Shown: piece after piece, positions 16,490 through 17,653 of the stretch
Numbering within the stretch: the first letter of the stretch is position 1
Layout: each line of letters starts with the position of its first letter
From: Candidatus Arthromitus sp. SFB-rat-Yit
Lineage (GTDB): Bacteria > Bacillota > Clostridia > Clostridiales > Clostridiaceae
Reading direction: 5' to 3'
Length of the DNA stretch: 32,000 bases
Assembly (NCBI RefSeq): GCF_000283555.1
Contig: NC_016012.1
Span: 720,001 to 752,000, forward strand
Notes under the pieces: model-generated
The model's database searches: none
Seen by the model: the letters and a program-made list of their open reading frames with translations, nothing else
What the model was told of the DNA's origin: nothing
Translations under genes and position numbers: made by a program

Positions 16490-17653
16490 TTATTTTCCAA
16501 TCTCTTTAAAAGTCAAAAGCTTATCTCTATAATATTCGTATTGTTTCTTCCTGGCTTCAATTTCTGCAGGAAGTCCTTCGGTTAAATCATTGCAAAGCTT
16601 GTCAAACTTATCGAGTATTGAAACTATTCTTTCTTGTTCTTCTAAGGAGGGAAGAGGAATTTCTATATCTAATAAATTACTCGGAGTTACTCTAATAACT
16701 TTTGTTCCATGTGCTAACCTACGTTTTTGCGTAAAAAACATTTCTGTATAAAAATAATAAGCTAGATAAGATGGGTTTTGATTATGTTTAATAATTACAG
16801 CATCTCCACTAATTGCAGCATCTTCATCTCCCAACCAAACTAAACACTTACATAAATCTTTAAGATTTTCGCTCGTTACTGCCATTATGATATCATTCTT
16901 CTGAGCTTTCTTTGATTTTTCAAAAATTTCTCCCTCAACAAAACTAATTGTATTTTTAACTTTCATTCCATATTTTGTATATATCTGCCCATAATGAATA
17001 CATGGAAATCCTTCATCTCTAAAATCTTTTTTCTGAAAATTTCCACCTCTAATTATCGTTGCAACATCCTTGAGTTTTACCCTCGGCACATCATCACCAA
17101 ACGTAAATAGCTTATCTCTATAATACTCATACTGTTTCTTTCTTGCTGTAAGCTCTGCTGTAAGCTCTGCTGTAAGCTCTGTAAACGAATCTAAAATATG
17201 TACAATCTCTTCTTGAACTTCTAGGGGTGGAATTGGGATCTCAAACTTCTCTATCATGGGTTTTCTTATAGATTTTACAGTTGCACTTACAGCCTTTTTC
17301 AAAATAAATTTTTTGAAAAAGACACAAAAATAATAATACACAAACTTTACATTAATTAAATTTCCAGTAAAATGTATCCTATAAACTCTTTGATGAATAG
17401 CATATTTCCCATTTATATAATGATATATCTCTCCAATCCTACCTTCTCCAGGTATAATAATTGCTTCCTCATCATACTCCCATTCATTTTTTCTTTTTAC
17501 AATTTGTGAACGTATAAAAAATGGATAATTCCCACCTTCCTCTGCTTCATTACCATTACTACTTCCAGTAGTAATCTCTGCTAAATTTTCAATTGCTTTA
17601 TACTCAACGCCATCAGGACAAAGTTTTTTTATCAATTCATCTATATTGCTCAT
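16490..17653 (-). CDS. hsdS: Type I restriction-modification specificity subunit HsdS (two TRDs, type IC-like conserved regions); orphan
   Basis: Two target-recognition domains are separated by the central conserved region [27 protein letters not shown] and closed by the C-terminal [19 protein letters not shown]. No hsdM or hsdR is present in the window, and there is no obvious SD before the ATG. Confidence 0.9.
   Translation of the reverse strand: [387 protein letters not shown]
17145..17180 (-). repeat. Three perfect copies of a 12-bp tandem repeat (gctgtaagctct; encodes ELTA x3) in the hsdS central conserved region
   Basis: Copies at 17145-17156, 17157-17168 and 17169-17180 are identical. 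A partial fourth copy (gtaa) follows. Confidence 0.95.

Follow-up and report, generated by a model that had tools for sequence, protein, structure and literature searches.

Three identical 12-bp units in the predicted domain-spacing helix of a solitary EcoR124-like hsdS gene in rat-lineage SFB

The closest described systems for the gene analysed here are EcoR124I and EcoR124II. EcoR124I contains a 12-bp repeat encoding TAEL twice and has GAA N6 RTCG as its target, whereas EcoR124II contains the TAEL repeat three times and has GAA N7 RTCG as its target (Loenen et al., PMC3874165). This change of the spacer from N6 to N7 arises by unequal crossing-over, and each TAEL unit moves the recognition domains by ~1 bp and thereby the spacer by one, as is known for EcoR124I/II and EcoDXXI hybrids (PMC3874165). 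EcoDXXI and EcoPrrI have three repeats each (PMC3874165). The presence of tandem tetra-amino-acid repeats (TAEL, LEAT, SEAL, TSEL and others) in the central conserved region is a trait of type IC systems (PMC10030836). In M. pneumoniae, 7 of the 10 scattered hsdS genes have a 12-bp repeat encoding AELS or TELS in the same helix; the number of copies differs among 15 strains, and also between passages of a single strain, for which slipped-strand mispairing has been proposed (PMC4537597). A survey of repeat-variable type I systems also notes the TAEL(n) coiled-coil tract and hypothesizes that it affects spacing (Atack et al., PMC7383803). A preliminary description of the locus studied here had referred to EcoR124I and EcoR124II as differing by two versus three TAEL repeats and by N6 versus N7, which agrees with the published account (PMC3874165).

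The hsdS gene and its repeat tract

The window, by which we mean the whole stretch of 32 kb of DNA of a segmented filamentous bacterium (SFB, Candidatus Arthromitus) that was analysed, contains a single match to hsdS. The gene and its parts are organized as follows:

16490..17653, minus strand: hsdS, type I restriction-modification specificity subunit; intact frame of 387 aa; two target-recognition domains (PF01420, 7bst, P0007)
17231..17599, minus strand: target-recognition domain 1, residues about 19-141 (PF01420 stretch 13-168; a strain with 99.3% identical flanks diverges from residue 18)
17099..17230, minus strand: central conserved region, residues 142-185, predicted first helix of the domain-spacing coiled coil (EcoR124 alignment, family survey)
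17144..17181, minus strand: perfect tandem repeat, 3 identical 12-bp units plus 2 nt (Tandem Repeats Finder, sequence, translation)
16652..17098, minus strand: target-recognition domain 2, residues about 186-334 (second PF01420 stretch; many relatives are 60-71% identical here)
16493..16651, minus strand: distal (C-terminal) conserved region, residues 335-387, predicted partner helix, with a fixed 17-aa linker (alignment to the EcoR124 C-terminus, family survey)

PF01420 (Methylase_S) is found in two stretches of the protein (E 1.9e-44), and the best solved relative is EcoR124 HsdS (7bst chain A, E 5.3e-36), to which residues 102-383 were aligned. The central region aligns to the EcoR124 central helix without gaps and the repeat is located in the same helix, confirming the earlier placement of the tract in the central conserved region as in EcoR124. 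Motifs in the central and distal conserved regions are near-identical to those of EcoR124 HsdS, and the C-terminal region matches as well. The closest full-length relative among 5.8 billion clustered proteins, P0007, shows 69% identity without gaps over 386 residues. Its gene is part of an operon (L097) consisting of hsdM, a small ORF, hsdS and hsdR, and the HsdR protein contains PF12008 (EcoR124_C). Based on the two PF01420 domains, the match to EcoR124 and the operon of P0007, the gene, as judged from its sequence, encodes an intact HsdS that belongs to the EcoR124-like (type IC-like) family. In its classical definition, type IC rests on genetic complementation, antibody cross-reaction with EcoR124 subunits and a bipartite m6A target.

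Analysis with Tandem Repeats Finder identified a repeat with a period of 12 at 17144-17181, consisting of 3.2 copies with 100% matches and 0 indels. As previously described, gctgtaagctct is present three times on the plus strand at 17145-17180. A partial fourth copy had been proposed to extend to 17184; beyond the three full units there are indeed one or two additional nucleotides (t at 17144 and g at 17181), but 17182-17184 do not match. The tract at 17144-17181 is the sole perfect tract of such length with at least three copies in the 32-kb window. On the coding strand the unit is GAGCTTACAGCA, encoding Glu-Leu-Thr-Ala (ELTA), and the tract corresponds to residues 159-170 of HsdS; the translation of ORF 16490-17653 contains the same peptide that had been assigned to the minus-strand hsdS. 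Three ELTA units equal two TAEL units plus flanks (residues 158-170), and the protein thus displays the tandem tetra-amino-acid repeat of type IC subunits. Both GAG (21% of Glu codons in the window) and CTT (25% of Leu codons) are minority codons and both are used in the hsdS units. The probability that three ELTA units have identical codons by chance is ~0.0014 given the codon usage of the window, which indicates that protein conservation alone does not explain the identity of the units at the DNA level. Other repeats in the window are a 27-bp unit at 118-187 (2-2.4 copies, the first two 100% identical), located upstream of or within the start of an ftsK-like ORF, and a 23-24-bp unit at 9635-9710 (about 3 copies, 75-81% identity) between ORF 8412-9683 and miaA.

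To relate the tract to the published repeat numbers requires attention to the register. In the window protein ILDSF and RKKQY are separated by a linker of 13 aa, the same residue count as in the PDB sequence of EcoR124, which contains TAEL twice and is therefore the EcoR124I form, even though the molecule name given by the depositors is EcoR124II. The window allele thus corresponds to the length of EcoR124I and not to that of EcoR124II. An extra unit is counted in the DNA because the flanks (TEL.../...TA) extend the repeat at positions where EcoR124 has TAL.../...NM. The number of DNA units is consequently not one-to-one with the published "TAEL number". The earlier parallel with EcoR124I/II stands with respect to family, position and principle, but has to be corrected for length, as the three units here are equivalent to two TAEL.

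Unit number among relatives and the search for variants

To see how the three-unit state relates to the family, linker lengths were compared. Among the best 120 protein matches the commonest central linker is 13 aa, and variants of 9 aa and 17 aa are present as well. A scan of a genome collection with the HsdS yielded 80 related genomic loci, the window's own genome not being among them. Of 55 central linkers obtained from these loci, 28 are 13 aa long, 24 are 17 aa, two are 9 aa and one is 5 aa, with lengths of 13, 17, 9 and 5 aa corresponding to 3, 4, 2 and 1 units, respectively. The state with three units and 13 aa is the modal one in the family and is no special feature of the window gene. 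Perfect tracts with a period of 12 and a length of at least 36 nt occur in about 25 of the 55 related genes, several with the unit GAGCTTACAGCA, and at least three identical consecutive units are found in 16 of the 47 related genes that were tabulated unit by unit. The best-scoring relatives (P0001-P0120) are mostly HsdS proteins of ~600 aa that comprise three recognition domains and as many conserved helices, and have the ELTA repeat in the first helix only.

Within a gene, units differ on average by 1.68 of 12 nt, compared to 3.01 of 12 nt between genes (n = 47 genes); this higher similarity within genes is a signature of homogenization by gain and loss of units. Changes by one unit can also be seen directly between close relatives. 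All 617 aligned residues agree between P0085 (621 aa) and P0112 (617 aa), whose sole difference is one ELTA unit, and similar one-unit pairs with ~98.5-99% identity are formed by P0090 and P0077 with P0110. The repeat-length mechanism is real at the level of the family and has already been described.

For the window gene itself a variant was searched for in several ways. The exact HsdS protein is absent from a collection of 15 billion proteins, and a homology search found no relatives more than 69% identical. Pattern scans of metagenomes with variable gaps, using either unique flanks or flanks from the conserved region, gave no matches to alleles with two, three or four units. Comparison of copy number among strains, which the preliminary description had put forward as a check, yielded no second allele with the same domains in the collections searched. 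As no copy-number variant of the window hsdS was found, we can only infer switching in rat SFB. The earlier view of the tract as a built-in specificity switch is therefore supported in part, by the one-unit changes between near-identical relatives but not by a variant of the window gene. A tract of three 12-bp units is short, and its rate of change may be low. In the SFB literature that was searched, the only trace of a restriction system is a peptide from human SFB samples assigned to a "type I R-M subunit M", with none for the rat strain.

Locus history, alleles and expression signals

The RecA protein encoded in the window groups with those of Candidatus Arthromitus SFB-mouse and SFB-turkey, which identifies the source as an SFB. 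Downstream of hsdS on the minus strand are miaB, mutS, mutL and miaA; upstream of it are a TM2 gene in divergent orientation and a gene resembling PI-PLC. The type IC partner genes, usually arranged in the order hsdM-hsdS-hsdR, do not accompany this hsdS: tblastn detected neither hsdM nor hsdR, intact or degraded, in the 32-kb window, and blastn and tblastx searches against 80 family loci detected no hsdM remnant upstream of hsdS. A second hsdS, silent hsdS fragments or inverted hsdS repeats were not found in the window either, and the locus does not resemble the inverting or shuffling multi-hsdS loci (pneumococcal ivr/tvr, M. pulmonis hsd). A tyrosine recombinase gene (7442-8386) has the same location in mouse SFB despite the lack of hsdS there, and is thus not tied to hsdS.

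In mouse SFB and another SFB lineage (L092-L096), TM2 is next to miaB, separated from it by 122-217 bp that contain no hsdS. In contrast, hsdS is present in rat-lineage strains with flanks 99.3% and 92.7% identical to the window, with the stop codon at the same position. The presence in rat-lineage strains and absence from mouse SFB indicate an insertion in the rat lineage which has been kept open since these lineages split. The G+C content of hsdS (31%) compared to that of the window (29%) gives no compositional signal of an island. The insertion is flanked by a short direct repeat:

16482..16490, plus strand: 9-bp direct repeat CTATTTGCT, copy one, overlapping the final base of the hsdS stop codon
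17748..17756, plus strand: 9-bp direct repeat CTATTTGCT, copy two, flanking the hsdS insertion

The pair brackets hsdS together with a 94-nt leader, and CTATTTGCT has 3 matches in the window compared to 0.44 expected; it may have originated by target duplication or as a microhomology junction. On both sides of hsdS there are sequences similar to the promoter region of miaB. In one mouse-SFB assembly (L092:6575-11344, run ERR027209) an island located between miaB and mutS encodes an integrase, an N6/N4 DNA methylase and part of another integrase, and the miaB neighbourhood may be an insertion hot spot. With the HsdM of an Arthromitus MAG (L016:6415-8004) as a query, HsdM proteins of the family (P0142-P0261) that are 81-86% identical were found across very many unrelated gut bacteria, implying a wide horizontal spread of the system; none of these matches could be tied to the genome of the window.

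Alleles of hsdS were compared within the rat lineage. In the strain with 99.3% identical flanks (L088:1-57 against 17596-17653 and L084:1-43 against 16490-16532), hsdS departs from the window sequence at residue 18 (Y to W and beyond), and its distal conserved region has synonymous changes only. From the departure at residue 18 together with the synonymous distal differences it follows that this strain carries a different hsdS allele. Contigs from three independent short-read assemblies end within hsdS, at 17188 (L082), 17596 (L088), 16532 (L084) and 16565 (L085 and L086). These ends are located in the central (17188), N-terminal (17596) and distal (16532 and 16565) parts of the gene and never in the recognition domains, which suggests that conserved hsdS segments are repeated or heterogeneous in those samples and points tentatively to additional hsdS copies or a mixture of alleles. 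We considered whether the Logan contig end at 17188 reflects heterogeneity in copy number and rejected this, as mixed unit numbers would make a graph with k = 31 branch at the tract boundaries (17144 and 17181), and the contig end is 7 nt away from these; a second sequence with the same conserved 30-mer would be the more probable cause.

Signals for expression of hsdS were looked for in the following region:

17654..17829, no strand assigned: intergenic stretch separating hsdS from the divergent TM2 gene (sequence read directly)

An extended -10-like sequence, TGATATAAT, is present upstream of hsdS at 17730-17722 on the minus strand, and a consensus scan for a minus-strand promoter in 17654-17829 gave no match. 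On reading the sequence, no purine run resembling a Shine-Dalgarno sequence was seen ahead of the hsdS ATG. Since TGATATAAT is present without such a run, expression of hsdS is uncertain. Downstream, the conserved promoter of miaB (TGTTATAAT) is located between hsdS and a TTG start of miaB. This alternative start follows the ribosome-binding site GAAAGGAGAG; the miaB ORF at 15054-16475 (473 aa when read from an ATG) probably includes 26 codons too many, with SFB homologues being 447 aa. On the other side, a strong hairpin with a 14-bp stem and a subsequent T run (18206-18236) between the TM2 and PI-PLC-like genes is likely a bidirectional terminator, and Logan contig L082 ends inside it. Beside the PI-PLC-like gene, the small ORFs 19576-19950 and 19997-20311 have signal-peptide-like N-termini and ~77% DNA identity at their 5' ends (19554-19616 and 19972-20037), and from these sequences they look like paralogous secreted proteins.

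Weighing the explanations and comparison with known systems

Our overall reading, which we hold with some confidence but well short of certainty, is that the tract is the length-setting module of a solitary EcoR124-like hsdS in rat-lineage SFB which is expressed, is served by an HsdM encoded elsewhere and has a changeable tract. The units are predicted to lie in the first of two antiparallel helices which hold the recognition domains apart. The current allele, with its linker of 13 residues, is in the commonest state of the family and has the length of EcoR124I (N6 in that enzyme). Identity of the units in the DNA would allow replication slippage or unequal crossing-over to add or remove one unit. 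One unit equals four residues, or about one helical turn, and its gain or loss would move the half-sites one base pair apart or together, so that alleles of 17 aa or 9 aa would be predicted to have a spacer that is 1 bp longer or shorter. In this reading, hsdS would be expressed and its product would find its HsdM partner at another genomic locus. It is rather doubtful that the tract switches often enough in rat SFB to be of biological use. Improbable, in our estimate, is the broader proposal that this solitary, lineage-specific hsdS, directly upstream of miaB-mutS-mutL, provides a type I methyltransferase from another locus with a specificity module that can be exchanged and can vary in length, with slippage and allele replacement generating epigenetic and restriction heterogeneity within populations of a host-specific symbiont of the gut that is unculturable.

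The gene could instead be a remnant of horizontal transfer that arrived without its methylase and nuclease and is unexpressed or unpartnered, with the repeat as inherited family sequence of no consequence. The solitary position with no hsdM or hsdR within 32 kb, the lack of hsdS between TM2 and miaB in mouse SFB and in a further SFB lineage and the lack of a ribosome-binding-site-like sequence before the ATG are all compatible with such a remnant, as is the observation that the protein collection has no record of the HsdS product but does have the products of its neighbours (RecA, MutS, TM2, RimO). Against a remnant stand the open frame of 387 codons in an AT-rich genome (29% G+C) and the gap-free alignment to the operon-borne P0007 with all conserved motifs intact, and the 3' end and stop position of hsdS are kept even in the lineage with 92.7% identical flanks. 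Its G+C content of 31% matches that of the host (29%), which indicates that the acquisition was not recent, and M. pneumoniae is a documented case of scattered hsdS genes that depend on an hsdM at a distance (PMC4537597). We regard an inert gene as unlikely.

Somewhat less unlikely, though still doubtful, is that hsdS is functional while the repeat is effectively fixed, and that specificity varies by replacement of whole domains or alleles from other hsdS copies or incoming DNA. The different allele of the strain with 99.3% identical flanks, which departs at residue 18 and thus at the start of domain 1, points in this direction, and so do the contig ends in conserved parts of hsdS, as repeated or heterogeneous segments would cause them. 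On the other hand, the window contains no silent hsdS fragments or inverted hsdS repeats, the recombinase at 7442-8386 is also present in mouse SFB lacking hsdS, and replacement of domains is compatible with repeat change, family pairs differing by one unit being known. The perfect identity of the units might also result from selection on the nucleotide sequence or from recent transfer of a cassette, and not from ongoing expansion and contraction. Recurrence of the unit GAGCTTACAGCA or GAGCTTACAGCG in Clostridia, Treponema, Fibrobacter and Bacteroidales would fit this explanation, but units differ between genes (GAACTAACAGCA, GAGCTGGAAGCA, GAGCTTTCAGCG and others) and are identical within a gene, which is the pattern of homogenization, and unit number varies in single steps both across the family and between the near-identical proteins P0085 and P0112. 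This makes selection or cassette transfer a very improbable cause.

Under the preferred reading of a length-setting module, gain or loss of a unit would, if hsdS is active, retarget both DNA methylation and restriction in SFB. SFB shape host Th17 immunity and are hard to culture, and their genetic manipulation is only beginning. Strain typing and engineering would profit from knowledge of their restriction barriers and of epigenetic switching, if there is any.

Of the known systems, EcoR124I/II shares with the window gene the family (E 5e-36), the central helix, the tetrapeptide in the context ...LTAELTAEL..., the flanks ILDxF and RKKQYxYYRD and the 12-bp unit. EcoR124, however, is encoded on plasmid R124 of E. 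coli, whereas the window hsdS is chromosomal and solitary; the recognition domains of EcoR124 are not related in sequence to those of the window HsdS, and there are two alleles of EcoR124 but no second allele of the window hsdS among the collections searched. The HsdS proteins of EcoDXXI and EcoPrrI belong to the same family and have the same repeat module, with three TAEL representing the state with a 17-aa linker, compared to which the window gene is shorter by one unit. In Lactococcus lactis, solitary hsdS genes on plasmids make use of the chromosomal HsdM and HsdR. There, as proposed here, a lone type IC-like hsdS adds specificity to a system encoded elsewhere, but the window hsdS is chromosomal, adjoins miaB-mutS-mutL and is without a known partner. 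M. pneumoniae resembles the window in having hsdS away from hsdM (none in 32 kb in the window) and a 12-bp repeat in the first dimerisation helix, and differs in having 10 hsdS copies, tracts of up to 26 units and documented variation, as opposed to one copy with three units. In type I systems with simple sequence repeats (PMC7383803), repeats inside hsdS likewise alter methyltransferase specificity, but they mostly act as on/off frameshifts by short repeats, whereas the 12-bp unit in the window keeps the frame and alters length only. The principle of helix length has been known since EcoR124I/II and was found again in Mycoplasma, and the present locus adds an example to it and not a new concept.
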